From Syntrophaceae bacterium (GTDB lineage Bacteria; Desulfobacterota; Syntrophia; Syntrophales; UBA5619): DNA of 64,000 nt. The DNA is taken from the NCBI GenBank assembly GCA_003141195.1, contig PLLC01000106.1:2745-66744 (forward strand). Reading direction: 5' to 3'. Positions within the stretch are counted from its first letter, which is position 1, and each line of letters opens with the position of its first letter. Shown piece after piece: positions 7,901 to 57,101 of this stretch. Position numbers and translations under genes: made by a program. The notes under the pieces were generated by a model that saw only the letters and a program-made list of their open reading frames with translations, ran no database searches and was not told where the DNA came from.

Positions 7901-9336
7901 TGGTCGTTGAAGTTGGGCGGACGCTTCCCTCGGAAGGCCGTCTCAGCAATATCATCCATTTTCAACCCCAACGTCTCGTGGGCCGATTCTTCCAGGAATG
8001 AGCCGGTGCCCGCCGAACACGCTTCGTTCATGGCGTAGTCGGAGGGGACAGAATTGATGATATAGGTGTATTTGGCGTCCTGGCCGCCGATTTCAAAAAT
8101 GGTGTCCACCTGGGGATCAAAATAGACGGCGGCCGTGGCGTGGGCAACGATCTCGTTGATGACCCCTTCCGTGAGGGCGTGCAGCCCCGCAATCTGCCTG
8201 CCCGAGCCGCAGACGCCCAAGCCTTCGATGCGGATCGCTTGCGGATCGACCTTCTGCCGGACCTGCTCGAAAAGCGAGCGATAGCATTGGCGGGAGGCGC
8301 CCACCGGATCTCCGTTAGTGCGCAAATATACGGAAACCAAAAGGGCATGGTCCGATCGGCGCACGAGCACGGCTTTTGTGGTGGTGGAGCCGACATCGAG
8401 ACCCAGAACGCAGGCATCCCCAGGCCGGATGGTATCCCGTTCCATCGTTTTGAACTCAACCTGGCCGGCGAAATCAGTCAGTGGCGGCAGGCTGTCGAAG
8501 GAGGTTGCTCTCGTGACAAAGAGCTCGGCAAACCCTGGAAAACGAGCGGTTTCATGGGACAGACCCCATAGGGCAGCCCCCAGGGCTTCCAGATAGGATG
8601 CCGTCTCCGGCACGACCAGGCCGGGGATCTCCTGGCGGAGGTATTCGATCATCATGCGGTTCTGGGCCGCACCGCCGATGATCATGATGTTGCGCCGCTC
8701 CACCTTTTTCAACAGCTCCAGGATCTTGTCGGCCATCATTTTACACAGGCCGGCGGTCACCTGCGGCTTGGGAATACCCTTGTTGGTGGCATGGGTGCAG
8801 TCCGACTTGCAAAACACCGAGCAGCGGCCCGACACGTGATATGGTGTCTCCACTCCCGCCCATTGCGCAGCCTCCTCCAAGCTCACATTCATGCGGCGCA
8901 ACTGCTGCAAAAAAAACTCGCCGGTCCCGGAGGCGCACTTGTTGCCGGTGACCACGTTTGTGATGCGTCCCGACCGATTCAGCACATACACCATGAAAGT
9001 TTCGCCGCCGGCTGATACGATGGCTGGGCAGTCGATATCGGGTGGCTTAACGAAGGCGTAGGCACACTCCACCGCCTCCGGTTCCGGGATGGACGTTAAA
9101 TTGACGAACCGTCGGAACTTGCGGCCGGTGGCGGTAATCCGATCGAAGAACTGTATATCCACGCCTTTGAGAGCCTGAACCAGGCAGCGTTTGGGATCGC
9201 CCTCATGAGCCTGAAGGGAATGGGCGCTAATGTGTGGTGAAAGCACCCGATTGTCTTCCAGTTCCTGCTCCACTTGAACGAGAGAAATAGTCGATGCCCC
9301 TAAGCACAGACCAAGCGACTTCAGTTTGACGGCCAT
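4957..9336 (-). CDS. Acyl-CoA dehydratase activase-related fusion protein (two BadF/BadG/BcrA/BcrD-type ATPase modules plus a DUF2229/HgdB-like C-terminal region)
   Basis: ORF 4957..9345 (GTG); first ATG at 9336. Module 1: LGLCLGASTISLV...GNKCASGTGEFF...GRCSVFCKSD. Module 2: LGLDVGSTTTKAVLV...EIGGQDAKY...NEACSAGTGSFLEE...NDQCAAFIGSD. Then a Cys-rich linker (TCRGGKEKCDRRCPI...GGACNRYYN) and a long dehydratase-subunit-like tail. Confidence 0.85.
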   Translation of the reverse strand: MAVKLKSLGLCLGASTISLVQVEQELEDNRVLSPHISAHSLQAHEGDPKRCLVQALKGVDIQFFDRITATGRKFRRFVNLTSIPEPEAVECAYAFVKPPDIDCPAIVSAGGETFMVYVLNRSGRITNVVTGNKCASGTGEFFLQQLRRMNVSLEEAAQWAGVETPYHVSGRCSVFCKSDCTHATNKGIPKPQVTAGLCKMMADKILELLKKVERRNIMIIGGAAQNRMMIEYLRQEIPGLVVPETASYLEALGAALWGLSHETARFPGFAELFVTRATSFDSLPPLTDFAGQVEFKTMERDTIRPGDACVLGLDVGSTTTKAVLVRRSDHALLVSVYLRTNGDPVGASRQCYRSLFEQVRQKVDPQAIRIEGLGVCGSGRQIAGLHALTEGVINEIVAHATAAVYFDPQVDTIFEIGGQDAKYTYIINSVPSDYAMNEACSAGTGSFLEESAHETLGLKMDDIAETAFRGKRPPNFNDQCAAFIGSDIKNAIHEGVAREDIASGLVYSICMNYSNRVKGNRPVGEKIFMQGGVCYNSAVPLAMGALIGKPIIVPPEPGLMGAFGVALEVQKRIEEGLMAAKPFDLETLARREVAYGKTFTCRGGKEKCDRRCPIAVIQVEGQKYPFGGACNRYYNIRRNVHYDTERLDLVRIRQKLIFQTYGAPPDKEKVRSYKGRVGLNRSFLVNTYYPLYSNFFNELGFDVVLPDHPSQEGIDQCGAPFCYPVELAHGFICSLLESENPPDFLFLPHFKAIPGQNEGSSSQSQVCPLVQGETFYLQTAFSGKLGQLIGGGARLLTPLLDLSGGIESAEEPLIGTARHMGVGRRAAREAFAVALQKQRDCFLNMKETGRRMLSELESDPDKFGVVIFARPYNGFTGEAHMGIPHKFATRGIPVIPIDFLDLEQERSKRHMYWGMGDLILKAACFVEKHPQLFGAYITNFSCGPDSFIISYFRDIMGRKPSLTLELDSHTADAGIETRVEAFLDIVRSYRQLMARRLISPRQRTFNPARVILENGSTRVVTSSGKTLALTDPRVEILIPSMGKFGTEAFAATLRGCGCNARALRENDKAILKLGRANTSCKECLPLILTTGTLLSYINNGRRKGEILVYFMPTGAGPCRFGQYAVYMEDLIRRLGIPDVALLSLSSDNSYSGMDKHFERHAWWAVVVSDVMEDIRSMLLANSVDPIAAGAIYSDEWRKILLALEKGNFDILTAQLSECADRLSAIPLKRSVHSVAVITLTGEIFVRRDALSRQYLTEYLAEKGFATVCAPVSEWVYYCHYLTDRGFNLDHLTIAQKFKLKIRNLFQRHYEKRIKSILSKSGLVHAEALDIAGIIKNASPYISLALPGEAILTVGGALSEVVTHSCGVIAIGPFGCMPNRISEAILGEIMTAGKKLATDPTNQKLQEVLTDIDDLPFLAIESDGSPFPQLINAKLETFLLRADRFHQYMMATNYNCLKNH

Positions 9337-9665
9337 GGATAACACCTTTTGCCAGAGCGGGCACTTAAAAAACTGTCTTAGATAAATTCTATCAGAAATT
9401 TGTTCCTTACGGGAAGTTTTATTGTCTCGGCAACTAATGAGATTTTTGGTTGGTAATCGTTACACGCAGGCGAGATCAAGGGCGTAAACCCTCTTCCCGA
9501 ATTCGTTAATTGACAGATTGTGATAAGTATTGCTAAAAGAGCGCATGATTACAACCTGAAAGTGATGCTGCTTGCTATCGGGCTTTGATCTCATCCTTTT
9601 TCACGAAGTACGCATCAACCGGATGAACCAGTTTTTTGAACCACCCGAAGAAAGGAGACCGGAAC

Positions 9666-29412: not shown

Positions 29413-29997
29413 ATGGAAGATTACATCATCAAGATATTCCGGGAGTCGGGCCAGGTCAAGGAGGTTTTCGTCAACGAAAACCTCAACCGGATCGTGGCCG
29501 TGGTCGAGGCGGTTACGACGGCTCTGAAGGCGGGAAACAAGATTCTGCTCTTCGGAAACGGCGGGTCCGCGGCGGACGCCCAGCACCTTGCAGCGGAATT
29601 CGTGAACCGGTTCGTGATCGAGAGGCCGCCCCTTCCCGCCATTGCGCTGACGACGGATACGTCGATCATTACCAGCATCGGGAATGACTACGATTTCGCG
29701 GACATCTTCAGCAGGCAGATCCGGGCCATCGGCCAGAAGGGCGATATTGCCTGGGGAATGAGCACCAGCGGGACCTCCATGAACGTGGTCAAGGGTCTGG
29801 AGGCGGCCAAGAAGATCGGCATGGTCACGATCGGTCTGACCGGACGGGACGGCGGTGATGTTGCGAAGATCGCGGATCACGCCCTGAACGTCTCCTCGAC
29901 CAGCACCCCCCGCATCCAGGAGGTGCACATCACGGTGGGGCACGTGATCTGCGAGATGGTGGATTTCAAGCTCTTTCAGAGACCGGATATGAAATAG
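29413..29997 (+). CDS. gmhA: D-sedoheptulose-7-phosphate isomerase (SIS domain)
   Basis: ORF 29299..29997, trimmed to the ATG at 29413. ILLFGNGGSAADAQHLAAEFVNRF, ALTTDTSIITSIGNDYDF, GMSTSGTSMNV, IGLTGRDGG, QEVHITVGH. Confidence 0.85.
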   Translation: MEDYIIKIFRESGQVKEVFVNENLNRIVAVVEAVTTALKAGNKILLFGNGGSAADAQHLAAEFVNRFVIERPPLPAIALTTDTSIITSIGNDYDFADIFSRQIRAIGQKGDIAWGMSTSGTSMNVVKGLEAAKKIGMVTIGLTGRDGGDVAKIADHALNVSSTSTPRIQEVHITVGHVICEMVDFKLFQRPDMK

Positions 29998-30004
29998 GAG
30001 AGAC

Positions 30005-30640
30005 ATGGTCGCAAAGGTGAAAAAAGATACGGCAGAGGCCAGAGAAGGTCTTCCGAAAAAAACGGGGGAACCGCACGCGGCGGTTGGCGAGACTGTAGCG
30101 GAAGTTCCCGGTAAGACGGATAAGGCAGAAGATCTGATGGTGAAACTTCAGGACGCGGAGAACAAGGCCGCGGAAAATTACGACAAATACGTGCGCGCCG
30201 TTGCCGAACTCGAAAATTATCGGAAACGCGCCGTCCGGGAGAAGGCGGACGCGATTCAATACGGCAACGAGACCCTGCTGCGGGACATCCTGCCGCTGGT
30301 CGACGGCATGGACCGCGCCTTGGAACATGCCTGCAATTCGGAAGACTTCGAGGCCTTCAAAAAGGGGCTCAAGCTGCTTCAAGGGCAGCTCCTGGGTTGT
30401 CTGCAGAAACACGGTGTGGAGATGATCGATACGGCGGGGAAGGATTTCGATCCGCATGTACATGAGGCGATGATGCAGGTGGAGAGCGCCGAACATGAGG
30501 ATAGCCAGGTAGTCGGCGAGTTCGAGCGGGGGTATCTGCTCAACGGCAGGCTGCTCCGGCCGGCGAAGGTATCCGTCTGCAAACGTTCTTCGATGGGCGG
30601 TGATCCGGAAAATAATTGCGAAGAAGCTAAGAATCATTAA
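30005..30640 (+). CDS. grpE: Nucleotide exchange factor GrpE
   Basis: YVRAVAELENYRKRAVREK...LLRDILPLVDGMDRAL...FDPHVHEAMMQVES...VVGEFERGYLLNGRLLRPAKV. Confidence 0.95.
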   Translation: MVAKVKKDTAEAREGLPKKTGEPHAAVGETVAEVPGKTDKAEDLMVKLQDAENKAAENYDKYVRAVAELENYRKRAVREKADAIQYGNETLLRDILPLVDGMDRALEHACNSEDFEAFKKGLKLLQGQLLGCLQKHGVEMIDTAGKDFDPHVHEAMMQVESAEHEDSQVVGEFERGYLLNGRLLRPAKVSVCKRSSMGGDPENNCEEAKNH

Positions 30641-30658
30641 AGAGGAGGAATCGTTATC

Positions 30659-32596
30659 ATGGGAAAGATTATCGGAATCGATCTGGGAACAACCAACTCG
30701 TGCGTCGCGGTGATGGAAGGCGGGGACCCCGTCGTGATTGCGAACCAAGAGGGGAATCGGACGACCCCATCGATGGTGGCCTTTACGGAGAGCGGGGAGC
30801 GGCAGGTGGGGCAGGTCGCCAAGCGGCAGGCCGTCACCAACTCGGAGAACACCGTCTATGCGATCAAGCGGCTCATCGGGAGAAAATACAATTCGAAAGA
30901 GGTTCAGTACGACAAAACGGTCAGCCCGTTCAAGATCACCGAGGCCGGAAACGGAGACGCCCAGGTGACGATCCGGGGGCGGAACTACAGCCCGGCGGAG
31001 ATCTCCTCGATGATCCTGACGAAGATGAAGCAGACCGCGGATGATTACCTCGGGGAGAAAATCACCGATGCGGTCATCACGGTGCCCGCCTACTTTAACG
31101 ACTCCCAGCGGCAGGCGACGAAGGACGCCGGCAAGATCGCGGGGCTGAACGTCTTGCGGATCATCAACGAGCCGACGGCGGCGGCCCTGGCCTATGGCCT
31201 GGACAAGAAGAAGGACGAGAAGATCGCCGTCTTCGACCTGGGCGGCGGGACGTTTGACATCTCGATCCTCGAACTGGGCGACGGGGTTTTTGAAGTCAAG
31301 TCCACGAACGGCGACACCCACTTGGGCGGCGAGGATTACGACCAGCGGCTGATCGAGTACCTGGCCACCGAATTCAAGAAGGACCAGGGTATCGACATCC
31401 GGAAGGACAAGATGGCTTTGCAGCGAATCAAGGAGGCGGCGGAGAAGGCGAAGATGGAACTCTCCAGCTCGATGGAGACGGACGTCAACCTGCCCTTCAT
31501 CACGGCCGACGCCTCGGGTCCCAAACACATGAACATCAAGCTGACCCGGGCGAAGCTGGAGGCCCTCGTCGAGGACCTGATCGAAAAGATGGTGCCGCCC
31601 TGCCTGACGGCCCTCCAGGACGCGAAACTCAAGACAAGCGAAATCGACGAGGTAATCCTCGTCGGCGGGATGACCCGGATGCCCCGCGTCCAGCAGAAGG
31701 TGAAGGAGATCTTCGGGAAGGAGCCCAACAGAGGAGTCAACCCGGATGAGGTGGTCGCGGTCGGCGCGGCGATCCAGGGCGGAGTCCTGACCGGCGACGT
31801 GAAGGACGTCCTGCTCCTTGACGTGACGCCGCTTTCCCTCGGCATCGAGACGCTGGGCGGCGTCATGACGAGGCTGATCGAAAAGAACACGACGATTCCG
31901 ACCAAGAAGAGCCAGGTCTTTTCGACGGCGGCCGACAACCAGCCGGCGGTGAGCATCCATGTCCTCCAGGGGGAACGCTCTATGGCGGGCGACAACCGGA
32001 CGCTCGGGCGGTTCGAACTGGTGGGGATCCCCACGGCGCCGCGCGGCGTGCCGCAGATCGAGGTGACCTTCGACATCGACGCGAACGGCATCGTTCACGT
32101 CTCGGCGAAGGATTTGGGGACCGGGAAGGAGCAGAGCATCAAGATCACCGCTTCCAGCGGTCTTTCCGAAGAGGAGATCAGGAAGCTGGTGAAGGATGCC
32201 GACGCCCACGCCGAGGAAGACAAGAAGAAGAAGGAGCTCATCGAGGCGCGGAACCATGCGGACGCAATGGCCTACAGCGTGGAGAAGAACATCAAGGAGT
32301 TCGGGGACAAGATCGACGCCGCCGAGAAGGCGAAGATCGAAGAGGGCATCGCCAAGGTGAAGAAGGCGATCGAGGGCGACGACCTTGAGGCGATCAAGAC
32401 GGCTCAGGAGGAGCTGACCAACGCCTCCCACAAACTGGCGGAGGCGATGTACGCCAAGACCGCGCAGCAGCAGCCGGGTGCGGGCGCCGGTCCCCAACCG
32501 GGTGCGGAAGCCGGTCCGGGCGCAGGTGCGCAGGCGGGCGGCGGCAAGAAGGATGACGACGTGGTCGACGCCGATTTCGAGGATGTGAAGAAGTAA
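30659..32596 (+). CDS. dnaK: Molecular chaperone DnaK (Hsp70)
   Basis: [21 protein letters not shown]..., [26 protein letters not shown]. 645 aa, full length. Confidence 0.98.
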
Positions 32597-32617
32597 ATTT
32601 TGTTTGAGACCCAACGG

Positions 32618-32651
32618 CCCGGGCGTCCCTCGCGGATGCCCGGGTTTTTTT
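32618..32651 (+). terminator. Rho-independent terminator after dnaK
   Basis: CCCGGGC (32618-32624) pairs with GCCCGGG (32638-32644), followed by TTTTTTT (32645-32651). Lies 22 nt after the dnaK stop. Confidence 0.8.
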
Positions 32652-32753
32652 ATCGACGACGGGTTCCGTATGGTATAAGGGATCATGAAAAAAGGAAGAG
32701 ATTCCTCCCTCAGGGGAGGGTAAAGAGCAGGGGAACTGGAGTAGGCGATCGTG

Positions 32754-33356
32754 ATGAGCCTTTTGCACAGGGTGATGCGATGGATGGCGCCGGCGGCGGT
32801 TCTGCTGATCCTTCTGGTTCTTCCGCCAGCGGGGGACGCCGCGCAACCCGGAGGCAAGGCCGCGGTCACTTCACCGCAGGCGGTTGTGGAGGCGAAACTG
32901 CTCCTGGACCGGGATTACTTCACCGCCCTCCTGGACGGCGTCGATCGCGCCCGATCGGAGATCTTCCTTTCCGCCTACCTGTTCCGGACGATCGAGAATG
33001 CGAAGGGTTATCCCGAGGCGGTTCTGAAACGCCTTCTCGCGGCGGCGAAGCGGGGAGTTCGGGTTGATGTGGTCGTCGAACGGAATCAGGATGCAGACGA
33101 CCTCAACCGGAGCAATGCCGAGACGGCGGAGAGGCTGAAACAGGGTGGAATCCGAGTCTGCATGGACGCCCCGGACCGGGTGATGCACACGAAGCTCGTA
33201 GTGATCGACCGGCGGTACGTCCTGATCGGGAGCCACAACCTGACGCAGTCGGCCCTGAAGTACAACCACGAGGCCTCCGTCTGGATCGATTCGGCCCCAC
33301 TGGCCGAAGAGGCGCTGCTCTATATGAAGTCCCTCTGCCCCGGAGAGTGGAAGTGA
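32754..33356 (+). CDS. Secreted phospholipase D-like / Nuc-family HKD-domain protein
   Basis: Signal-like N-terminus (MRWMAPAAVLLILLVLPPAGDA). Single HKD motif HTKLVVIDRRYVLIGSHNLT. GTG at 32751 or ATG at 32754. Confidence 0.8.
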   Translation: MSLLHRVMRWMAPAAVLLILLVLPPAGDAAQPGGKAAVTSPQAVVEAKLLLDRDYFTALLDGVDRARSEIFLSAYLFRTIENAKGYPEAVLKRLLAAAKRGVRVDVVVERNQDADDLNRSNAETAERLKQGGIRVCMDAPDRVMHTKLVVIDRRYVLIGSHNLTQSALKYNHEASVWIDSAPLAEEALLYMKSLCPGEWK

Positions 33357-44261: not shown

Positions 44262-45179
44262 ATGTCGGACGAGATGATGAACACCAAAGAGGTCGCTGGC
44301 TACCTGGGCATCCACGAAAAGCAGGTTTACGCCCTGATCAAGACGGGGCGCATGCCGGCGACGCGCGTCACGGGGAAGTGGATATTCCCGAAGAAGGTGA
44401 TCGACGGCTGGATCGAGTCGAACGCCAGATCAGGTCTCGAACAGGCCAGACAGAAGAGCGGACGGATCCCAGGCGCCCTGCTGGCCTCGGGCAGCAACGA
44501 TCCGGTTCTCGACATCCTCCAGACTTGCCTGCGGAAAGCCCATCCGGAGTTCTACATCTTCTCGGCCAATACGGGAAGCCGGGAGGGTCTGATCGCCCTG
44601 GAAAAGGGCTTTACCGACATTGCCTGGACCCACCTGCTCGATCCCGAAACGGGGGAGTACAACATCCCCTACCTGGACAGGCTGGTTCCGGGAGTCAAGG
44701 CCGTGGTCGTGAACCTTTTCTTCCGGGAACTTGGTTTTGTGATCGCCCGGGGAAATCCCCGGCGCATCCGGAAATTTGCGGATCTCGTCCGGAAGGGGGT
44801 CCGTTTCGTCAACCGCCAGACCGGTTCGGGGACGCGCCTGCTGCTGGATCACCATCTGGAGAAGGCCGGGATTCTCGCCGCCCGGATCGCCGGTTATGAC
44901 CGGGAGGTCTTCACCCATATCGAAATCGGCATCGCCGTCCTCTCCGGAGAGGCGGATGCGGGAATCGCCACGGCGGCGGTTTCGAGCCTGCTCGGCCTCG
45001 ATTTTGTTCCCATAACCAAAGAGCGGTTCGACATGGTCCTCGATCAGTCGGTCTTCTTTCAGAAAGGGGTCCAGGCCCTCATGGAAACGCTGGGCGGGGA
45101 AGAGTTCCGAAAAAGGGTCGGGAAGCTGGGGAGCTATGACTTCCGGAGTTCAGGAAAGATTCTCTATTCAAAGCCATAG
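44262..45179 (+). CDS. TunR-like regulator: excisionase/MerR-type HTH fused to a periplasmic-binding-protein-like (molybdate/tungstate) domain
   Basis: 305 aa. N-terminal HTH MNTKEVAGYLGIHEKQVYALIKTGRMPATRVTGKWIFPKKVIDGW, then a PBP-like domain (LLASGSNDPVLD...GFTDIAWTHL...VNRQTGSGTRLLLD). Directly upstream of tupA/B/C. Confidence 0.75.
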   Translation: MSDEMMNTKEVAGYLGIHEKQVYALIKTGRMPATRVTGKWIFPKKVIDGWIESNARSGLEQARQKSGRIPGALLASGSNDPVLDILQTCLRKAHPEFYIFSANTGSREGLIALEKGFTDIAWTHLLDPETGEYNIPYLDRLVPGVKAVVVNLFFRELGFVIARGNPRRIRKFADLVRKGVRFVNRQTGSGTRLLLDHHLEKAGILAARIAGYDREVFTHIEIGIAVLSGEADAGIATAAVSSLLGLDFVPITKERFDMVLDQSVFFQKGVQALMETLGGEEFRKRVGKLGSYDFRSSGKILYSKP

Positions 45180-45211
45180 ACAGTTTTGATGAATCGGAAA
45201 AGGAGTCGGAG

Positions 45212-46063
45212 ATGAAAAAATGGGTATTCGCGGTTTTGTTTGCCCTGGCGATCCTTCTTCCCTGCTCGGGGTACGCGCAGGACGGGAAGTTCGTTCTTCT
45301 GGCCAGCACGATCGGGCCGATCGACGCCGGCATTGTCGGGGCGCTGGAGAAGGGATTCGAACAAGAGACGGGAATCCGGGTGCGACACGTGGGCGCCGGG
45401 ACGGGCGCGGCCCTCAAGATGGCCGAGGGCGGGCAGTTCGACCTGGTCCTTGTCCATGCCAAGGCGCTGGAGGAGAAGTTCGTGCAGGGCGGTTTCGGGA
45501 CGCAGCGGGTGCCCCTGATGTACAATGACTTCGTCATCGTGGGGCCGGCGGCCGATCCGGCGGGGATCCGGGGGATGAAGACGGCGGCCGAGGCGCTCAA
45601 AACCATCGCCGCCAAAGGGGTGACCTTCATCACCCGCGGGGACCAATCGGGAACGCATGTCGCCGAGCTGGATCTCTGGGTGAAGTCGGGCGTCAAGCCC
45701 GCCGGTCCCTGGTATGTCACCTACGAGAAGGGATCGACCGGGAACGTTCCGACCCTCCTCTTTACGGATGAAAAGCAGGCCTACACGGTGATCGACCGGG
45801 CGACCCAACTTTCTGTCCGCAACAAGATCAAGCTCGCCATCCTCGTGGAGAACGAAGAGGCGATGCTGAATTTCATCTCGCTCATCCCCGTCAATCCGGC
45901 GAAGTTTCCCCGCGTCAACGCGGCGGCGGCGATGCAGTTCGTGGAGTGGATGACGGCCCCGGAGAAGGGGCAGGTGATCATCCGGGATTTCGGAAAGGAC
46001 CAATACGGTGCGCCGATGTTCTTCCCCAATTCCGACGCCTGGCGGAAAAAAATGGGGAAGTAA
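45212..46063 (+). CDS. TupA-like periplasmic oxyanion-binding protein, divergent paralog
   Basis: 283 aa, signal peptide. Overall collinear with the next gene (MYNDFVIVGPAADPAGI, TRGDQSGTHVAE, INPAKFPRVN). The N-terminal anion-binding motif reads LLASTIGPIDAGIV rather than LATTTSTQDSGLL. Confidence 0.8.
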   Translation: MKKWVFAVLFALAILLPCSGYAQDGKFVLLASTIGPIDAGIVGALEKGFEQETGIRVRHVGAGTGAALKMAEGGQFDLVLVHAKALEEKFVQGGFGTQRVPLMYNDFVIVGPAADPAGIRGMKTAAEALKTIAAKGVTFITRGDQSGTHVAELDLWVKSGVKPAGPWYVTYEKGSTGNVPTLLFTDEKQAYTVIDRATQLSVRNKIKLAILVENEEAMLNFISLIPVNPAKFPRVNAAAAMQFVEWMTAPEKGQVIIRDFGKDQYGAPMFFPNSDAWRKKMGK

Positions 46064-46089
46064 TGGTTTTTTAATAAAAGGAGAAGAAA

Positions 46090-46947
46090 ATGAAACGACA
46101 ATGGCAGAAGGTTTTGGGCGCGGCGCTCATCGCCGCGGCATTGATGATCGGCATGGCGCTGCCCGCCTCCGCGGCGGGGCCGGCACAGAAGAACCTGATC
46201 CTTGCGACGACGACCAGCACCCAGGATTCGGGGCTCTTGGACGTCCTGATCCCGGTGTTTGAAAAGAAGACCGGCTATTTCGTCAAAACGATCGCCGTAG
46301 GCTCCGGTCAGGCGATGGCGATGGGGCAGAAGGGCGAGGCGGACGTCCTGCTGGTCCATTCACCCGATGCGGAAAAGAAGTTCATGGCGGAGGGAAGCGG
46401 TGTGAACCGGCTGATCGTCATGCACAACGACTTCATCGTCGTCGGACCGCCCGCCGATCCGGCCGCGATCAATGGGGCCAAGAGCACGGTTGAGGCCTTC
46501 AAAAAGATCGCCGCAGCCGGTTCACTCTTCCTGTCGCGGGGGGATAACTCCGGGACCCACGCCAAGGAGCAGGGGATCTGGAAGGCGGCCGGGATCAACC
46601 CCGAGAGACAGAAGTGGTACCAGCAGACCGGCCTCGGGATGGGGCAGACCCTGAACGTTGCGGCCGAGAAGAAGGGTTACATCCTTGCCGACCGGGGGAC
46701 CTGGCTTTCCCTGCAGCAGAAGCTCGGCCTTCCCATCCTCAAGGAGGGGGATCCGATCCTGTTGAACGTCTATCACGTTATCCAAGTGAACCCGGCCAAG
46801 TGGCCGAAGGTGAATGCCGACGGCGCGAAGGTCTTCTCCGACTTCATGGTCTCCGCGGAAACCCAGGGGATCATCAAGACCTTCGGCGTGGAGAAGTACG
46901 GAGGGGCGCTCTTCTTCCCCGACGCGGGCAAGCCGGAGTACGACTAA
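46090..46947 (+). CDS. tupA: Tungstate ABC transporter substrate-binding protein
   Basis: 285 aa, signal peptide. Canonical motifs LATTTSTQDSGLLDVL, MHNDFIVVGPPADPA, SRGDNSGTHAKE. Confidence 0.85.
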   Translation: MKRQWQKVLGAALIAAALMIGMALPASAAGPAQKNLILATTTSTQDSGLLDVLIPVFEKKTGYFVKTIAVGSGQAMAMGQKGEADVLLVHSPDAEKKFMAEGSGVNRLIVMHNDFIVVGPPADPAAINGAKSTVEAFKKIAAAGSLFLSRGDNSGTHAKEQGIWKAAGINPERQKWYQQTGLGMGQTLNVAAEKKGYILADRGTWLSLQQKLGLPILKEGDPILLNVYHVIQVNPAKWPKVNADGAKVFSDFMVSAETQGIIKTFGVEKYGGALFFPDAGKPEYD

Positions 46948-47036
46948 TCATTGATGTAAGAAAGTGAAAACGGGCGTCGCGGGGCGGGATCTGCGCCCCG
47001 GCGACGCCCGCCGGAACACGGCAGGCGGTGTATTTG

Positions 47037-47735
47037 ATGGATTTGATTCTGGAAGGGATCCTGAAGGCCTTTTATCTCATCTTTACGCTGGACGCGGAGG
47101 TCCTAGGGATCACGCTCCTGTCCCTGAAGGTGTCGGGGACGGCGACGCTGATCAGCCTCTTCATCGGGATCTCCGCCGGGACGGCCGTGGCCCTCTCCCG
47201 GTTTCCGGGGAGGCAACTGGTCGTGAGCCTGATCAACACGGGGATGGGCCTCCCGCCGGTGGTCGTGGGCCTCTTCGTGACGATCTTCCTCTGGCGGAAC
47301 GGGCCGCTCGGTTTCCTGGAGATCCTTTACACCCCGACGGCTATCATCCTGGCTCAGGCCGTCATCGCCACCCCGATTGTCACGGGGATCACCCTGGCGT
47401 CCATCCAGCATCTACCGGCGAACCTCCGCCTCCAGATCCTCGCCCTGGGTGCGACGCGCGTCCAGATGGTCTGGCTCCTGGTCAAGGAAGCGCGCCTGCC
47501 TCTCCTGGCGGCCGTGATGGCCGGCTTCGGCGGAGTCATCTCGGAGGTCGGGGCCTCCATCATGGTCGGCGGCAACATCAAGGGCTACTCCCGGGTCCTG
47601 ACGACGGCGACCGTGATGGAGACGAGCCGGGGTAATTTCGATATTGCGATCGCCCTCGGAATCATTCTCCTGCTTCTCGCGTTTCTCGTCAACGCGATCC
47701 TCACGCAGATCCAGCAGCGGGAGAGGCCCCGATGA
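47037..47735 (+). CDS. tupB: Tungstate ABC transporter permease
   Basis: ORF 47028 (GTG) / 47037 (ATG)..47735. Five or six TM segments. BPD-transporter EAA-like region LQILALGATRVQMVWLLVKEARLPL. Confidence 0.85.
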   Translation: MDLILEGILKAFYLIFTLDAEVLGITLLSLKVSGTATLISLFIGISAGTAVALSRFPGRQLVVSLINTGMGLPPVVVGLFVTIFLWRNGPLGFLEILYTPTAIILAQAVIATPIVTGITLASIQHLPANLRLQILALGATRVQMVWLLVKEARLPLLAAVMAGFGGVISEVGASIMVGGNIKGYSRVLTTATVMETSRGNFDIAIALGIILLLLAFLVNAILTQIQQRERPR

Positions 47736-48847
47736 GCTCAAAAGACAATCCCGCGATTCTGCTGAAAGCCGAAGAGCTCCAGGTCCGCCGGGGCGGGGCG
47801 CTCGTCCTCGACATCCCGGCCCTGGACATTTTCCCGGGTCAGGTTCTTGCCCTGATCGGTCCGAACGGCGCAGGGAAATCGACCCTCCTGTTGACGCTCG
47901 CCTGCCTGCTGAAACCTTCACGGGGCCGCTTTTCCTTCAACGGGCGGGAGATCGACGCCGGACGCGGCGATGTCGATTACCGGCGGCGCGTCGCGATGGT
48001 CTTCCAGGAACCGCTTCTCTTCGACGCGACAGTCTTCGACAACGTGGCCGCCGGTCTCCGGATCCGCGGTGTGGGACGAGCGGAGATCGGGCGGGCCGTT
48101 CCCGGTTATCTGGAACTTTTCGGTATTGCTCCCCTGGCGATGCGTTCCGCCCGGAAGATCTCCGGAGGGGAGGCGCAGCGGACTAGCCTCGCCCGGGCCT
48201 TCGTGACGGAACCGGAGATCGTGTTCCTCGACGAGCCTTTTTCCTCGCTCGATCCGCCGACGCGTGAGGCCCTGCTTGGCGATCTCGAAAGGATCATACG
48301 CGAGACGCGCACGACGGCGGTGGCGTCGACCCATGACCAGACGGAGGCCCTCCGGCTGGCCGACCGGATGGCGGTGATGAATGAAGGGAAAATCGTCCAG
48401 ATCGGGCCGGTCGCCGAGGTGATCAACCGGCCGGCGGACGGTTTCGTTGCCTCCTTTGTGGGGGTGGAAACGGTCCTGCCGGGATGCGTCCTCCGGAGTT
48501 CCGACGGGGTATTCACGGCTGCTGTGGAAGGCGGCGAGATCCAGGCGGTCGGCCATCTCCGTCCTAGAGAAAGGGTTCTCTGCTGCATCCGGCCGGAGCA
48601 TGTGACCCTCTCCACGAACACCCCGTTTCCGGAGTCCAGTGCGCGGAACGTCTTTTCGGGAACGATCCGAAAGATCACGCCGCTCGGCCTCTTCCACCGG
48701 GTCCGCGTGGATTGCGGCTTCGACCTGGTCGTCTATGTGACCCGCCAGTCCATCGAAGAGCTTTCCCTGGAGGAGGGGAAAACCGTCATCGCCTCGTTCA
48801 AGGCGACGGCGGTCCATGTTATCCCCCGCGGGGCGCCGCCGAATTGA
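47732..48847 (+). CDS. tupC: Tungstate ABC transporter ATP-binding protein with C-terminal TOBE-like domain
   Basis: Walker A GPNGAGKST, signature ISGGEAQR, Walker B IVFLDEPFSSLD. ATGA overlap with tupB. C-terminal ~120 aa beta-rich TOBE-like tail. Confidence 0.9.
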   Translation: MSSKDNPAILLKAEELQVRRGGALVLDIPALDIFPGQVLALIGPNGAGKSTLLLTLACLLKPSRGRFSFNGREIDAGRGDVDYRRRVAMVFQEPLLFDATVFDNVAAGLRIRGVGRAEIGRAVPGYLELFGIAPLAMRSARKISGGEAQRTSLARAFVTEPEIVFLDEPFSSLDPPTREALLGDLERIIRETRTTAVASTHDQTEALRLADRMAVMNEGKIVQIGPVAEVINRPADGFVASFVGVETVLPGCVLRSSDGVFTAAVEGGEIQAVGHLRPRERVLCCIRPEHVTLSTNTPFPESSARNVFSGTIRKITPLGLFHRVRVDCGFDLVVYVTRQSIEELSLEEGKTVIASFKATAVHVIPRGAPPN

Positions 48848-53005: not shown

Positions 53006-54145
53006 ATGTCCTTTCAACTGACCACGGAACAGGAGATGATCCGGCTGATGGCCCGCGACTTCGCGAAGAAGGAGTTAGAGCCCTTCGCCGGAAAGTGGGA
53101 CCGGGAAGAGACCTTCCCGGAGAAGGCCGTCCAAAAGATGGGGGGGCTGGGGCTCATGGGGATGATGATCCCCGTCGAGTACGGCGGCGCGGGGGCGGGG
53201 GCGGTCAGCTATTCCCTTGCCCTCCAGGAGATCGCCTACGCCTGCGCCTCCACAGCGGTGACGATGTCGGTGACGAACCTCTCCTCCGATCCGATCCTCA
53301 AGTTCGGAAGCGAGGAGCAGAAAGAGCGTTACCTGATGCCGCTCGCCCGCGGGGAGATGCTCGGGGCCTTTGCCGTCACGGAGCCGGAGGCGGGTTCCGA
53401 CCCGGGGGGCATGACGACGCGCGCGGAGGACCGCGGCGACCACTACCGGGTCAACGGCTCGAAGATCTTCATCACCAACGGTTCTTACGCCGACGTGATC
53501 GTTCTGATCGTCCGGACGGGATCTGAAAAGTCGAACCGGGCGCTTTCCGCCTTTCTCCTCACGAAGGGGACTCCGGGGTTCCGGATCGGCCGGAGCGAGG
53601 ATAAGATGGGACTGCGCGCCTCCAATACCGTGGAACTCCTCTTTGACGACTGTCGGATACCGAAGGAGAACCTGCTGGGGAAGGAGGGGATCGGCTTCAA
53701 GATCGCGATGGTGGCCCTTGACAGCGGCCGGATCGGGATCGCCTCCCAGTCCCTCGGGATCGCCCGGGCCTGCCTCCACGAGGCCGTGGCGTACGCGAAG
53801 ACGCGCAAACAGTTCGGGAAGAACATCGGCTCCTTCCAGGCGATCCAGTGGATGATTGCCGACACCGCTGCGGAGATCGAGGCGGCCCACTGGCTCACCC
53901 TCTACGCCGCCGATAAGAAGGATCAGGGGCTCCCCTTCACCCGGGAGGCGTCGATGGCGAAGCTCTTCGCCTCCGAGATGGCGAACCGCGCCGCCTACCG
54001 TGCCGTCCAGATTCACGGCGGCTACGGCTACATGAAGGAGTTCAAGGTGGAGCGGCTCTACCGGGACGCGCGGGTCACCGCGATCTACGAGGGGACCTCC
54101 GAAGTCCAGCGGATCGTGATTGCCCGCGAGGTGATGGAAAGTTGA
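53006..54145 (+). CDS. Acyl-CoA dehydrogenase (short/medium-chain type)
   Basis: 379 aa. MSFQLTTEQEMI..., AVTEPEAGSDPG, KIFITNG, RKQFGKNIGSFQAIQ, IYEGTSEVQRIVIA. Confidence 0.92.
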   Translation: MSFQLTTEQEMIRLMARDFAKKELEPFAGKWDREETFPEKAVQKMGGLGLMGMMIPVEYGGAGAGAVSYSLALQEIAYACASTAVTMSVTNLSSDPILKFGSEEQKERYLMPLARGEMLGAFAVTEPEAGSDPGGMTTRAEDRGDHYRVNGSKIFITNGSYADVIVLIVRTGSEKSNRALSAFLLTKGTPGFRIGRSEDKMGLRASNTVELLFDDCRIPKENLLGKEGIGFKIAMVALDSGRIGIASQSLGIARACLHEAVAYAKTRKQFGKNIGSFQAIQWMIADTAAEIEAAHWLTLYAADKKDQGLPFTREASMAKLFASEMANRAAYRAVQIHGGYGYMKEFKVERLYRDARVTAIYEGTSEVQRIVIAREVMES

Positions 54146-54150
54146 ACTCC

Positions 54151-55362
54151 ATGTTGTGGAATCCATGGAATCCGTCTCTTGATCCGGGCAGAATCGCCAT
54201 CATCGGTCCGGGCCGTCTGGGAACCGCCTTTGCCTACCGGTTTGGCAGGGACAACAAGCGGGTGATCGTCTATTACCACGACATCGACGTCTGCAAGGCG
54301 ATCAACCGGGAGCACCTGAACCCCCGGCATCTGACGGAGGACCTCGCGCGGCGACTCGGCGGCATGGACAAGGTTCCGCGCCTCTCGCAAAAAGTATATG
54401 CAACGAACAACCTGGAGCAGGTCATCGAGGACAACGATTTTATCTTCCTCTCCGTCACGATGGATCGGCTTCCCGAGATTCTCAACCACACCCGGCCGAT
54501 CCTGGAGAGGAAGGGTACGAACACCTGTTTCATCTCGGCGATCAAAGGGCTCACCGCCGACGAGATCACCCGCCAGCTCATCACCCCTTCCCAGCTCATC
54601 CGCAACAATTACTTCCGGTTTAAGGATCGATTTGACGTGGTTTCCATCGGCGGGCCGTTCTTCGATACGGATATCGCGCTGGGGAATCCGGTCTGTCTGA
54701 CCGTCGCCGGGGCGAAGAGAATCTGCCGGATCGTCCGGAAGGAGTTCCTCGGCTCCAACCGGCGGGAGCTGACCTCCCTTTACAATTTCGACGCCGTCGG
54801 GGTTGAGGCCTGTGGCGCCCTGAAGAACATCGTGGCCAACGTCAAGGGGTTGGCGGACCGCCTGGACCTCGGCGATTCGATCCCGGGGACTCTTTTTTCG
54901 CGCGCCGGGGTGGAGGTCCGGTCGATCTCCCGGATCCTCGGCGGGAGCTTTCAGGCCTTCCAGAGCCAGGCCGGCGTGGGGGACATGTATGTCACCCTTT
55001 CCTCGGATGCGAGCAAGAACCACCGCTACGGCCGCTTCTTCTACGAACTCTTCACCGGGAATGCGCTGGAGACTCATCTCAAGGTCCTGCAGAAAATCGA
55101 TGGGAAGCCGGAGGGGCCCAACACGATCCTCAATGTCCACAAGTTCCTCGAGAAGCGGAACATGTACAGCCCGATCTTTCATTGCGCCTACAAGATCTTC
55201 AACGAGGAGCGGAGCCGGGAGGAGATCCGGGAGCAGATCCTCCAGGCGACGCAGTTCGACCGCCGGACGAAGGAGTACATCAGACCCGTTTCGAGGCTTC
55301 TCTACCGCCTGTTCCCGAACCTCTGGTACCGACGGCAACGCGGCCTCCTCGCCAATCCGTGA
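54151..55362 (+). CDS. NAD(P)H-dependent glycerol-3-phosphate dehydrogenase (GpsA)-like protein with C-terminal extension
   Basis: ORF 54142 (TTG, overlaps the ACAD stop) / ATG 54151. Rossmann IAIIGPGRLGTAF. GpsA-like ACGALKNIVA...GTLFSRAGVEVRSI. About 60-70 aa longer than a typical GpsA. Confidence 0.7.
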   Translation: MLWNPWNPSLDPGRIAIIGPGRLGTAFAYRFGRDNKRVIVYYHDIDVCKAINREHLNPRHLTEDLARRLGGMDKVPRLSQKVYATNNLEQVIEDNDFIFLSVTMDRLPEILNHTRPILERKGTNTCFISAIKGLTADEITRQLITPSQLIRNNYFRFKDRFDVVSIGGPFFDTDIALGNPVCLTVAGAKRICRIVRKEFLGSNRRELTSLYNFDAVGVEACGALKNIVANVKGLADRLDLGDSIPGTLFSRAGVEVRSISRILGGSFQAFQSQAGVGDMYVTLSSDASKNHRYGRFFYELFTGNALETHLKVLQKIDGKPEGPNTILNVHKFLEKRNMYSPIFHCAYKIFNEERSREEIREQILQATQFDRRTKEYIRPVSRLLYRLFPNLWYRRQRGLLANP

Positions 55363-55381
55363 ATAAATGCTGAATAAATGC

Positions 55382-55411
55382 TTGACATCCCTTTTTCCCT
55401 TGTGTTATGGA
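55382..55411 (+). promoter_or_regulatory. Sigma-70-type promoter candidate for the trpB2 leader
   Basis: TTGACA (55382-55387), 18 nt, TATGGA (55406-55411). Confidence 0.45.
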
Positions 55412-55438
55412 AACCGAAAAACAGGGAGTGTTGAAACC

Positions 55439-55507
55439 GTGAAGATGGATGTAAGAATCATTTCGTTGTTCTGGTGGTGGCAGACCTCAAAAGTCTGCCC
55501 GCTATAG
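55439..55507 (+). CDS. Trp-rich leader peptide (attenuation leader) upstream of trpB2
   Basis: GTG at 55439 (GGGAG at 55424-28) or ATG at 55445: (MK)MDVRIISLFWWWQTSKVCPL*. Three consecutive TGG codons at 55472-55480. Below the ORF-track length cutoff. Confidence 0.7.
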   Translation: MKMDVRIISLFWWWQTSKVCPL

Positions 55508-55570
55508 TTCTATGTAAATTGAGCCGTGGGCAGGGAGACCCCTTCCCATGTTTCGAAATGAAAGTGCATG

Positions 55571-55600
55571 AAGCCATGGGAAGTTCCCATGGCTTTTTTA
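55571..55600 (+). terminator. Attenuator terminator of the trpB2 leader
   Basis: AAGCCATGGGAA (55571-82) pairs with TTCCCATGGCTT (55585-96), followed by a T run to 55599. An upstream CTTCCCATG (55542-50) is complementary to the left arm CATGGGAAG (55575-83), giving an antiterminator option. Lies 32 nt before the trpB2 ATG. Confidence 0.75.
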
Positions 55601-55631
55601 GTTTTTGACTACATGAAAAAGGAGACGGATT

Positions 55632-56993
55632 ATGGAACAGACCAAGGTAGTTCTGACGGATCAGGAAATCCCGAAGCAATGGTACAACATCCAGGCGGAT
55701 TTGCCCAAACCCATGAGCCCCCCCCTCCATCCGGGGACGGGGAAACCGGTCGGGCCGGAAGACCTGGCGCCGATCTTCCCGATGAACCTCATCGAGCAGG
55801 AGGTGAGCCAGGAGCGGTGGATCGACATCCCCGGCGAGGTCCTCGAGAAATATCTGATTTGGAGGCCTTCTCCTCTCTGCCGGGCGGTGAATTTCGAGAA
55901 GCTCTTAGACGCCCCGGTGAAGATCTATTACAAGAACGAGGGAATGAGCCCCGCCGGTTCCCACAAACCGAACACCGCCATCGCGCAAGCCTACTACAAC
56001 AAAGCCTTCGGCGTGAAGCGGCTCTCCACGGAGACCGGCGCCGGCCAGTGGGGAAGCGCGCTGGCGATGGCCTGCAAGATGTTCGACCTGGAGTGCCGGG
56101 TTTTTATGGTCCGGGTGAGCTATGATCAGAAGCCTTATCGGCGGATGATGATGAACACCTGGGGCGCCGAGTGCATCGCGAGCCCCAGCGACCGGACCGA
56201 GGCGGGGCGGAAAGTCCTGGCGGAGCATCCCGATTCCCCGGGGAGCCTCGGGATGGCGATCAGCGAGGCGGTGGAGGATGCCGTATCCCGGGAGAATTCC
56301 CGTTATTCGCTGGGCAGCGTCCTGAACCACGTCCTGCTGCACCAGACGATCATCGGTCTGGAGGCGCAAAAGCAGCTTGAAAAGATCGGGGTCTATCCCG
56401 ACGTGGTGATTGGCTGCGCCGGCGGCGGGAGCAATTTTGCCGGCGTCGCGCTCCCGTTCGTCCGGGACAAGATCCACGGGAAGCAGATAAGGATCATCGG
56501 CGCCGAACCGACCTCCTGCCCGACGATGACAAGAGGGCCTTTCGCCTACGATTTCGGCGATCTGGCCAAGAAGACGCCGCTGTTGCCGATGTACACGCTC
56601 GGCCACGACTATGTGCCCGCGCCGATCCACGCCGGGGGGCTCCGCTACCACGGGATGGCGCCGATCGTAAGCCACCTCCTCCGGGAAGGGCTGATCGAGG
56701 CCAAGGCCTATGACCAGATCGAGACCTTCGAGGCGGGCGTGAAGTGGGCGCGGACCGAGGGCTTTATCCCCGCCCCGGAGACCAACCACGCCATCGCCGC
56801 GGTCATCGCAGAGGCGCGGCGAGCGAAGGAAGAGGGGAAGGAGAGGACGATCCTCTTCAACTGGAGCGGCCATGGGTTGGTCGATCTGGCGTCCTACGAC
56901 GCGTACCTCACCGGGAAACTCATCCCCTACGCACTTCCCGACGAGGAGATCCAGCGGGCGTTGAAGGCGATCGAAGGTTTCCCGAAGCCGTAA
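55632..56993 (+). CDS. trpB: TrpB2-type tryptophan synthase beta subunit-like PLP enzyme
   Basis: 453 aa (long TrpB2 form). [18 protein letters not shown] (PLP Lys), [35 protein letters not shown]. No trpA adjacent. Confidence 0.9.
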
Positions 56994-57063: not shown

Positions 57064-57101
57064 TTCTTTGGGACCGCCCCGGCCGGGGCGGTCCCAAAGA
57101 A
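57064..57101. terminator. 38-nt perfect GC-rich palindrome after trpB2 (terminator-like hairpin, no clear U tract)
   Basis: TTCTTTGGGACCGCCCCGG / CCGGGGCGGTCCCAAAGAA, read directly. Lies 71 nt after the trpB2 stop. Confidence 0.5.

Follow-up and report, generated by a model that had tools for sequence, protein, structure and literature searches.

Known Attenuators and the trpB2 Leader

Upstream of trpB2, a gene for a TrpB-like pyridoxal phosphate (PLP) enzyme, a 64,000-nucleotide (nt) stretch of a Syntrophaceae bacterium genome (contig PLLC01000106.1; the whole stretch is termed the window here) carries an RNA element whose closest described counterparts are the leader-peptide attenuators trpL and hisL. 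Based on computational evidence (sequence features, conservation, base-pairing, spacing, and fold predictions), this element is very probably a ribosome-mediated leader-peptide transcription attenuator, which would sense charged tRNA-Trp and control a monocistronic trpB2.

The mechanism of trpL is that of Yanofsky's model. The features that trpL (RF00513) shares with the element are a short leader open reading frame (ORF) with tandem UGG codons, an intrinsic terminator before a tryptophan (Trp) pathway gene, the selection of an antiterminator by the position of the ribosome, and a terminator that is stronger than the antiterminator (PMC10989985; PMC1183508). Whereas trpL has two Trp codons and four segments and controls trpEDCBA in Gammaproteobacteria, the element has three Trp codons, six segments, and three hairpins, and precedes a lone trpB2 in Thermodesulfobacteriota (Syntrophales and relatives). 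The two also share no sequence or structure homology as judged by the Rfam model: no Rfam family, including the Trp_leader RF00513, matched at gathering score across the window, and at E ≤ 10 the interval 55300-55700 gave only chance matches to terminator hairpins (rli61, MIR405, and similar), with neither RF00513 nor the T-box RF00230 among them. These comparisons suggest that the element functions like trpL but is not its homologue.

The six-segment relay is the same as that of hisL, in which the pairings AB, CD, and EF alternate with BC and DE (PMC10989985), the latter two being equivalent to 2:3 and 4:5 here. In hisL, too, the off state consists of three hairpins, the last of which is the terminator, and the pairings shift once the first segment is occupied by the ribosome (PMC10989985). 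The regulatory codons differ (seven His codons as opposed to three Trp codons), and the two leaders are unrelated in sequence, target gene, and lineage. The first-pass annotation of the window had called the trpB2 leader a classical attenuator, a description that fits the mechanism but not the design, which is of the six-segment his-leader type and not of the four-segment type of Escherichia coli trpL.

Trp-codon leaders that are likewise lineage-specific and non-homologous are known from comparative genomics in Actinobacteria (Corynebacterium, Streptomyces) and before trpE(G) of Sinorhizobium (trpL/rnTrpL/peTrpL), although these precede trpE-type or operon genes. Attenuator segments with multiple pairing partners are conserved over large distances in actinobacterial and proteobacterial leaders (PMC1262725), and in Sinorhizobium the released attenuator RNA and the peptide can have functions in trans (PMC6614838; PMC7298713). 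The gene termed "trpB2A" in C. diphtheriae (PMC1262725) bears a gene-copy name within an operon and is not evidently a member of the TrpB2 family. Genes of the TrpB2_o group (COG1350/TIGR01415) lie outside trp operons, and their products usually coexist with an operon-encoded TrpB1 (PMC1854888); the trpB2 of the window is likewise full-length and outside a trp operon, and coexistence with TrpB1 is seen at a related metagenome locus (L114, described below).

In the literature searched, no cis-regulatory element was described for TrpB2_o genes, and no Trp leader was described before trpB2 or in Syntrophales or Deltaproteobacteria, the survey of Lopatovskaya et al. (2010) lying outside this coverage; the word tryptophan does not occur in Rodionov (2004) (PMC545781). 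The RNA family, the phylum, and the target gene appear to be new; the mechanism is the textbook one.

Architecture of the Element and Proposed Mechanism

The features of the leader and its gene, all on the forward (+) strand of the window, are as follows.

55382-55387 (+): -35 box TTGACA, read directly; invariant in 13 of 13 aligned close relatives, in which the flanking intergenic sequence is variable
55401-55411 (+): extended -10-like element TGTGTTATGGA, with TG at 55403-55404 and the weak hexamer TATGGA at 55406-55411, at an 18-nt spacer from the -35 box
55424-55428 (+): Shine-Dalgarno (SD) motif GGGAG serving the leader ORF, 10 nt upstream of the GTG at 55439; SD-like motifs precede the start in most relatives
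55439-55507 (+): leader ORF, 22 codons from GTG 55439 (20 from ATG 55445) with stop codon TAG at 55505-55507, encoding VKMDVRIISLFWWWQTSKVCPL
55472-55480 (+): Trp codons UGG UGG UGG, the regulatory codons, read directly; the run is conserved
55474-55485 (+): segment 1, the 5' arm of hairpin 1:2, overlapping Trp codons 1-3 and the Gln codon, from minimum free energy (MFE) folds
55493-55505 (+): segment 2, pairing with segment 1 (off state) or with segment 3 (on state; 55495-55502 with 55526-55533)
55521-55535 (+): segment 3, the 5' arm of hairpin 3:4 (the anti-antiterminator) or the partner of segment 2, from MFE folds and RNAalifold
55540-55554 (+): segment 4, the 3' arm of hairpin 3:4 or the 5' arm of antiterminator 4:5 (CUUCCCAUG, 55542-55550)
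55570-55583 (+): segment 5, the 5' arm of the terminator or the 3' arm of the antiterminator (CAUGGGAAG, 55575-55583)
55584-55599 (+): segment 6, the 3' arm of the terminator and its U run (55594-55599), from a terminator scan
55620-55624 (+): SD motif AGGAG of trpB2, at 7 nt from the ATG, not included in any predicted leader helix
55632-56993 (+): trpB2, the regulated gene, encoding a TrpB-like PLP enzyme of 453 amino acids (aa), from NF009057 and TIGR01415 scores

Every sequence feature reported by the first-pass annotation was found, displaced by at most 2 nt, including a leader ORF of 20 to 22 codons with three consecutive Trp codons at 55472-55480. The leader peptide reads (V/M)KMDVRIISLFWWWQTSKVCPL, with a GTG or an ATG start, and the ORF appears translatable, with a start codon and an SD motif here and an in-frame start in 122 of 126 copies of the element. 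The three tandem UGG codons precede a TrpB2 gene, and an intrinsic terminator lies between the leader ORF and that gene. The sequence TGGTGGTGG is expected 0.37 times per window and occurs twice; the other copy, at 8379 on the + strand, is antisense within a CoA-activase gene (4957-9345, - strand) and is a chance occurrence.

The arms that could pair are exact inverted repeats: GGCAGAC/GTCTGCC (55479-55485/55493-55499), CTGCCC/GGGCAG (55495-55500/55528-55533), and, joining segments 4 and 5, CTTCCCATG/CATGGGAAG (55542-55550/55575-55583). The terminator arms AAGCCATGGGAA/TTCCCATGGCTT (55571-55582/55584-55595) form a 12-nt perfect palindrome, which a terminator scan resolves as 12 pairs with a 3-nt loop at 55570-55596 and a T run to 55599, ending 32 nt before the trpB2 ATG at 55632. 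The pairings GCAGAC/GTCTGC and CTGCCC/GGGCAG, the complementarity of 55542-55550 to the left arm of the terminator, and the perfect terminator with its T run had all been proposed at these sites from the letters alone; what that list left out is hairpin 3:4 (55521-55535/55540-55554), which the switch logic needs.

The MFE structure of the window leader consists of three hairpins, namely 1:2 (55474-55485/55493-55505), which spans the Trp codons to the stop codon, 3:4, and the terminator 5:6; the on-state helices are 2:3 (55495-55502/55526-55533) and 4:5 (55542-55552/55573-55583). As modeled, the architecture is that of six segments, in which 1:2, 3:4, and 5:6 compete with 2:3 and 4:5. The 196-nt leader region folds with a z-score of -4.9, and none of 200 shuffles folds as well.

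On this architecture, the conserved TTGACA promoter would most likely start transcription ∼20 nt upstream of the leader ORF. With sufficient Trp, the ribosome would reach the stop codon and cover segment 2, and without translation hairpin 1:2 would form; whether segment 2 is covered or held in 1:2, segment 3 would pair with 4 and segment 5 with 6, and with the terminator 5:6 formed, RNA polymerase would terminate on the U run, 32 nt short of trpB2. Under a shortage of charged tRNA-Trp, the ribosome would instead stall on UGG UGG UGG and cover segment 1. Segment 2, which starts ∼14 nt downstream of the stall codons, would then be free to capture segment 3 once this is transcribed, and the freed segment 4 would pair with 5 before segment 6 exists, so that no terminator forms and trpB2 is transcribed. 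The inferred steps of this scheme are that the ORF is translated, that ribosomes stall on it, that the helices form in this kinetic order, and that read-through depends on Trp.

The start of transcription is likewise placed from the letters. A TTGACA-N18-TATGGA promoter had been proposed, and its letters and spacing are exact; the -35 box is conserved, as is TGTGTTA (which holds the TG-N motif), kept in the 13 close relatives ∼14 nt past TTGACA amid variable surroundings. The hexamer TATGGA, however, is weak and varies among the 13 relatives (TAGGAA, TAGGGG, TACGGA), and a consensus promoter scan of this region of the window did not list the leader -10/-35 pair. The TTGACA...TATGGA pair is accordingly best regarded as a putative promoter.

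Ribosome Position and Predicted Folding

The calculated helix energies (ΔG) are -15.7 kcal/mol for 1:2, -18.2 kcal/mol for 3:4, and -19.4 kcal/mol for 5:6, compared with -13.9 kcal/mol for 2:3 (-17.4 kcal/mol with its inner hairpin) and -11.9 kcal/mol for 4:5 (-16.3 kcal/mol with its inner hairpin). When no ribosome was imposed, or when a ribosome footprint was centered on the stop codon, the MFE structure of the window leader kept 3:4 and the terminator. With the footprint over any of the three UGG codons helix 2:3 formed, and with a stalled footprint on an RNA ending at 55584 (segment 6 absent) the MFE structure was 2:3 plus 4:5.

The same behavior is predicted across 89 family members. For RNA extending to the end of segment 5, a stalled ribosome gave the antiterminator in 71 of the 89 (in 65 of these together with 2:3), and a ribosome at the stop codon gave 3:4 without 4:5 in 73; with the ribosome at the stop codon and the full RNA, the terminator formed in 86. 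Constrained folding, which had been suggested as a check on the attenuator reading, thus predicts mutually exclusive structures that depend on ribosome position, both in the window and in its 89 relatives, and the predicted folds include an antiterminator that excludes the terminator.

Conservation of the Trp Run, Spacing, and Pairing

To compare the leader among relatives, 80 loci were collected by a protein-based genome scan, with TrpB2 proteins 78-92% identical to that of the window. These loci come from metagenome-assembled genomes (MAGs) labeled Syntrophales, Syntrophaceae, Smithellaceae, Desulfobacterales, Syntrophobacterales, or "Deltaproteobacteria"; in a listing of protein homologues, all of the 120 matches listed were TrpB2 proteins of ≥ 80% identity. 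An alignment of 43 leaders (A1) was used to build a covariance model (R1), a second alignment (A2) holds 99 distinct sequences, and statistics on the leader ORF were taken on 126 distinct elements.

The Trp run is the constant part of the peptide. At least two consecutive UGG codons are present in 110 of the 126 copies and at least three in 99 (four codons in 7, three in 92, two in 11), while the N-terminal portion of the peptide varies freely in sequence and length. An in-frame start codon accompanies the run in 108 of the 110 Trp-run copies, and in 107 of the 108 a stop codon follows 1-15 codons past it, the distances peaking at 3-4 and at 7-8 codons. The comparison of orthologous trpB2 upstream regions, proposed earlier as a check, thus finds the WWW peptide kept. 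The 16 exceptional copies are mostly of the W-x-W form (WRW, WCW, and WLW, through UGG to CGG, UGC, or UUG), and a few are degenerate. The W-R-W form, in which the middle Trp codon has become CGG (Arg), a one-base step from UGG, was observed at six loci (L005, L026, L029, L087, L128, and L152).

The distances within the leader are also kept. The CUGCC of segment 2 could be located in 102 Trp-run copies; in 99 of these it begins 13-17 nt past the Trp run, and in 64 at exactly 14 nt, the modal distance. The stop codon of most copies is found either 4-10 nt before this CUGCC or 7-10 nt after its start. With this spacing, which fits the ribosome footprint, a ribosome stalled on the Trp run would just expose segment 2, and one that has reached the stop codon would bury it; we see no reason why the Trp run and segment 2 should keep this distance if the sensor were not a ribosome.

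Both conformations are retained as base-pairing. For the off state, 92.1% of cells are paired in A2, compared with 40-55% when partners are slid by 1-3 columns, and 91.2% are paired in A1 (slid controls across both alignments, 36-55%); double-sided changes occur in 14 pairs, no shuffle attains the observed values, and RNAalifold run unguided on A1 returned the same three hairpins. For the on state, to which the alignment was not fitted, 86.6% of cells are paired in A2 compared with 34-46% in slid controls, and 85.4% in A1 (34-48% across both alignments). The alternative stems, whose conservation had been set as a further check, are therefore paired well above slid controls in both states. Among individual helices, the core of 1:2 (GGCAGAC/GUCUGCC) is paired in 96-97% of cells, 2:3 in 92% (with a compensatory pair that is C-G in 55 sequences and U-A in 27), the core of 4:5 in 82-100%, and the terminator in 97% across the 99 sequences, with compensatory A-U/G-C changes.

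The usual leader ending, WWWQ(T/A)xxVCP-stop, might suggest selection on the peptide, but its "Q..VCP" tail is the translation of CAG...GUCUGCCC, that is, of segments 1 and 2. In a subgroup with the endings WWWQVL-stop or WWWQTR-stop (for example, L033, L051, L055, L011, and L069), CUGCC lies past the stop codon and is equally conserved, which indicates a constraint on RNA pairing and not on the peptide. The near-invariance of the whole leader, terminator included, can be explained in the same way, because each segment complements two partners in a chain that is anchored on unchangeable UGG codons; this is the explanation given for multiply pairing segments in other attenuators (PMC1262725), and we propose it for the element.

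Distribution Among Related Genomes and Metagenomes

A small ORF with WW(W) lies within 400 nt upstream of trpB2 in ∼45 of the 80 genome loci, and the terminator GCCAUGGG-loop-CCCAUGGC-U6 is nearly unchanged across loci. Covariance model R1 gave a single strong + strand match per locus in 54 of the 80, always directly upstream of trpB2; elsewhere in the window it found only the opposite-strand palindrome of the terminator and one match at E = 0.46. Metagenomes were scanned with a pattern made of segments 4-6 only, and hence blind to the leader ORF. This returned 120 matches, 88 of which are followed by TrpB2 at 30-330 nt, the rest being a few at contig ends and ∼28 chance matches within unrelated coding sequence. 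R1 confirmed the element on 91 metagenome contigs. Wherever the contig holds the downstream gene, true elements precede trpB2 and never another gene, and the element, the WWW ORF, and the hairpins recur together before trpB2 in more than 120 independent sequences. The suggestion that attenuation operates in this lineage is thereby strengthened, given a one-copy element in 54 of 80 loci and on 91 metagenome contigs.

The element is undergoing loss in some lineages. At two loci (L002 and L004), trpB2 directly follows the upstream gene. Two close relatives, L006 (∼180-313) and L019 (∼3900-4000), have lost the leader and retain a decayed terminator remnant after the TTGACA box; in L006 this is CATGGGA/TCCTGTG right after the box, and L019 keeps the 3' half of the terminator only. 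A different leader, MAIIRWCENMNRRWRPRARGMPL-stop, with two separated Trp codons, precedes trpB2 in L064 and L067 (∼3740-4000), together with a shared TTGACA...TGTGTT promoter motif and a terminator CCAUGGG...CCCGUGG-U8; although missed by R1, it is probably a distant member of the element family. At four loci without a W leader (L034, L041, L057, and L063), the units GAUGUG(A/G)GAU/AUC(C/U)CACAUC build up a long, imperfect inverted repeat that lies ∼150-250 nt upstream of trpB2 and might be either another kind of regulatory hairpin or a repeat element.

The metagenome locus L114 (640-4636, minus strand) encodes trpF, trpB1 (TIGR00263, 637 bits), trpA, and tyrA, followed by an attenuator-trpB2 unit with its own TTGACA box, leader MYSVEFQNRIFWWWQIDIGLLT-stop, element, and trpB2. 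The attenuated TrpB2 gene thus adjoins those of a canonical tryptophan synthase and yet appears to be separately controlled. Other trp genes were sought by tblastn in all 200 loci, and only L114 has any.

Alternative Explanations

Several observations weigh against a Trp-responsive attenuator. The -10 hexamer is poor. The element is absent from 25 of the 79 related loci with upstream sequence, and is hence dispensable; ∼16 of the 126 copies have a degenerate Trp run (WRW, WCW, or a single W) or no start codon; and L086 (3017-3136) and L104 (830-949, minus strand) keep segments 3-6 without the leader, an unrelated A/C-rich sequence having replaced the leader ORF and segment 2, while the terminator is intact and a full-length trpB2 follows. 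On the attenuator model, the last arrangement would terminate constitutively. Covariation in helix 4:5 is thin, as the sequences are nearly invariant. Finally, the full-length RNA favors the terminator fold over the antiterminator fold by ∼6 kcal/mol, and imposing the stall mask on full RNA still leaves the terminator fold as the MFE structure, both for the window leader and for 79 of 89 relatives. Antitermination thus has to be kinetic and rests on the assumed co-transcriptional order of folding. Classical attenuators likewise have the more stable terminator and antiterminate kinetically.

Some of these observations would suit a translation-independent RNA switch (a riboswitch, for example, or a binding site for a protein), in which the UGGUGGUGG run is kept only for helix 1:2 and the ORF is incidental. 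The invariance, which extends to the terminator stem GCCAUGGG/CCCAUGGC in MAGs of several order labels, is unusual for an attenuator; at four loci (L040, L045, L059, and L066) the RNA is retained despite a decayed Trp run or a missing start codon; and L086 and L104 retain segments 3-6 alone. We nevertheless regard such a switch as very unlikely, since 108 of 110 Trp runs share their frame with a start codon, the nearby stop codon falls into two position classes relative to segment 2 that both fit the ribosome footprint, and the 13-17 nt between the Trp run and segment 2 would have no obvious rationale in the absence of a ribosome. In addition, the five helices explain all strongly conserved columns, leaving no conserved unpaired pocket, and no Rfam riboswitch or T-box matched at E ≤ 10. 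As for a protein target, no TRAP-type (G/U)AG repeats were seen in the leader by eye, although no formal scan was made.

The Trp-rich peptide also recalls TnaC, which has a conserved W...D...P-stop peptide with a C-terminal Pro and acts on Rho-dependent termination at tna. A sensor of this kind, in which the nascent peptide arrests the ribosome on free tryptophan or indole, would make Trp an inducer of trpB2, and TrpB-type enzymes do handle indole; many leaders end in VCP-stop or have Pro 1-3 residues from the stop codon. The likeness is superficial, however. The Pro codon belongs to the RNA motif CUGCCC and is absent from the WWWQVL-stop and WWWQTR-stop subgroups, where the motif is untranslated; no peptide conservation extends outside the Trp run; termination here is of the intrinsic kind, through a hairpin and U run, whereas tna depends on Rho; and a ribosome arrested at the stop codon would mask segment 2, favor the terminator, and switch the gene off. 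A TnaC-like sensor is, in our assessment, highly improbable. It is scarcely credible that the hairpin is a plain (or bidirectional) terminator of the gpsA-like gene upstream, with the trpB2 promoter lying beyond it and the small ORF there by chance. A promoter-like TTGACT-17-GATTAT does occur past the terminator (55605-55633), and the stem, as a perfect palindrome, scores on the minus strand too, but this promoter match overlaps the SD motif and start codon of trpB2, and two such sites were found where shuffles give 0.7, so that the match counts for little. The leader is separated from the upstream gene by the invariant TTGACA box, and more than 120 sequences retain both the WWW ORF and four other pairing segments, among them L114, which has a different gene (tyrA) upstream.

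The attenuator reading, which the first-pass annotation had put forward, is consequently the one favored by the conserved ORF, the conserved alternative stems, and the position-dependent predicted folds. An extended version of it, which we consider unlikely, is that the terminated leader RNA (∼170-180 nt) and/or the WWW peptide also acts in trans, like rnTrpL and peTrpL of Sinorhizobium, or that a second input (a protein or indole) acts on segments 3-4; it is raised because the sequence is near-invariant across several order labels and persists where the Trp codons or the leader ORF have decayed. Either way, TrpB2 would be the output of a dedicated circuit for Trp starvation or indole scavenging in syntrophic Thermodesulfobacteriota, separate from TrpB1/TrpA.

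Genomic Context of trpB2

The regulated gene is a bona fide TrpB2 and not a TrpB1. Its product scores 750.4 bits with NF009057 (cutoff 366) and 669.1 bits with TIGR01415 (cutoff 518.85), and falls below the TrpB1 model TIGR00263 (149.7 bits, cutoff 392.45), which agrees with the earlier assignment. The upstream genes encode a distant GpsA-like dehydrogenase, an acyl-CoA dehydrogenase, a helix-turn-helix (HTH)/cupin regulator, and an acyl-CoA ligase, and those downstream a Peptidase_MA_2 protein and a urea-type binding protein. No second trp gene was found among the ORFs scanned across the 64-kb window, so that trpB2 stands alone by position. The term "orphan", used for it earlier, is apt for this genomic position but not as a general rule, given the trpF-trpB1-trpA-tyrA genes immediately upstream in L114.

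The GpsA-like dehydrogenase (54142-55362, + strand, 406 aa) scores below all NCBIfam cutoffs and has a conserved C-terminal tail (LFPNLWYRR). It is the upstream neighbor of trpB2 in 67 fetched loci, whether or not the attenuator is present, and this synteny may be inherited or functional. Beyond trpB2, 77 nt past its stop codon, is a perfect 26-nt GC-rich palindrome, GGGACCGCCCCGG/CCGGGGCGGTCCC (57070-57095), with CTTT...AAAG flanks and no T run after it on either strand; it may be a terminator lacking a U tract or a repeat element.

Elsewhere in the window, a cluster at 44262-48847 (+ strand) encodes an HTH_17-PBP_like regulator, two PBP_like_2 binding proteins, a permease, and an ATP-binding cassette (ABC) ATPase with a TOBE domain, and looks like a molybdate/tungstate-type uptake system. 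The CoA-activase gene at 4957-9345 (- strand) encodes a 1462-aa protein of the CoA-enzyme activase type, with two BcrAD_BadFG ATPase domains and DUF2229. A 967-aa ORF at 29966-32869 (- strand) matches Pfam PF10712, "NAD-specific glutamate dehydrogenase" (543 bits), and is antisense to dnaK (30659-32596, + strand; HSP70, 914 bits). We take PF10712 to be a family built from antisense Hsp70 translations, and the ORF was rejected as a real gene on account of its antisense position.

Implications for TrpB2 Function

The element represents an uncatalogued RNA family, now with a covariance model, in a phylum for which, as far as we found, leader-peptide attenuation has not been documented. It also illustrates that alternative pairings, when linked in a chain that starts from UGG codons, can lock the sequence of an entire leader, including its terminator.

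TrpB2 occurs widely, and its physiological role is debated. Proposals include high-affinity scavenging of indole and O-phosphoserine-dependent Trp synthesis (Hettwer and Sterner, 2002; Busch et al., 2014; both as cited in PMC11917138), and the function has also been called unidentified (PMC1854888). A conserved attenuator before trpB2 that reads tRNA-Trp would imply a demand for TrpB2 specifically under Trp-tRNA shortage and, as the L114 locus suggests, even where TrpB1 and TrpA are encoded alongside. Such regulation fits both the indole-scavenging and the O-phosphoserine synthase proposals and does not tell them apart, and read-through of the ∼180-nt leader would offer a simple, testable handle on the role of TrpB2 in these organisms.

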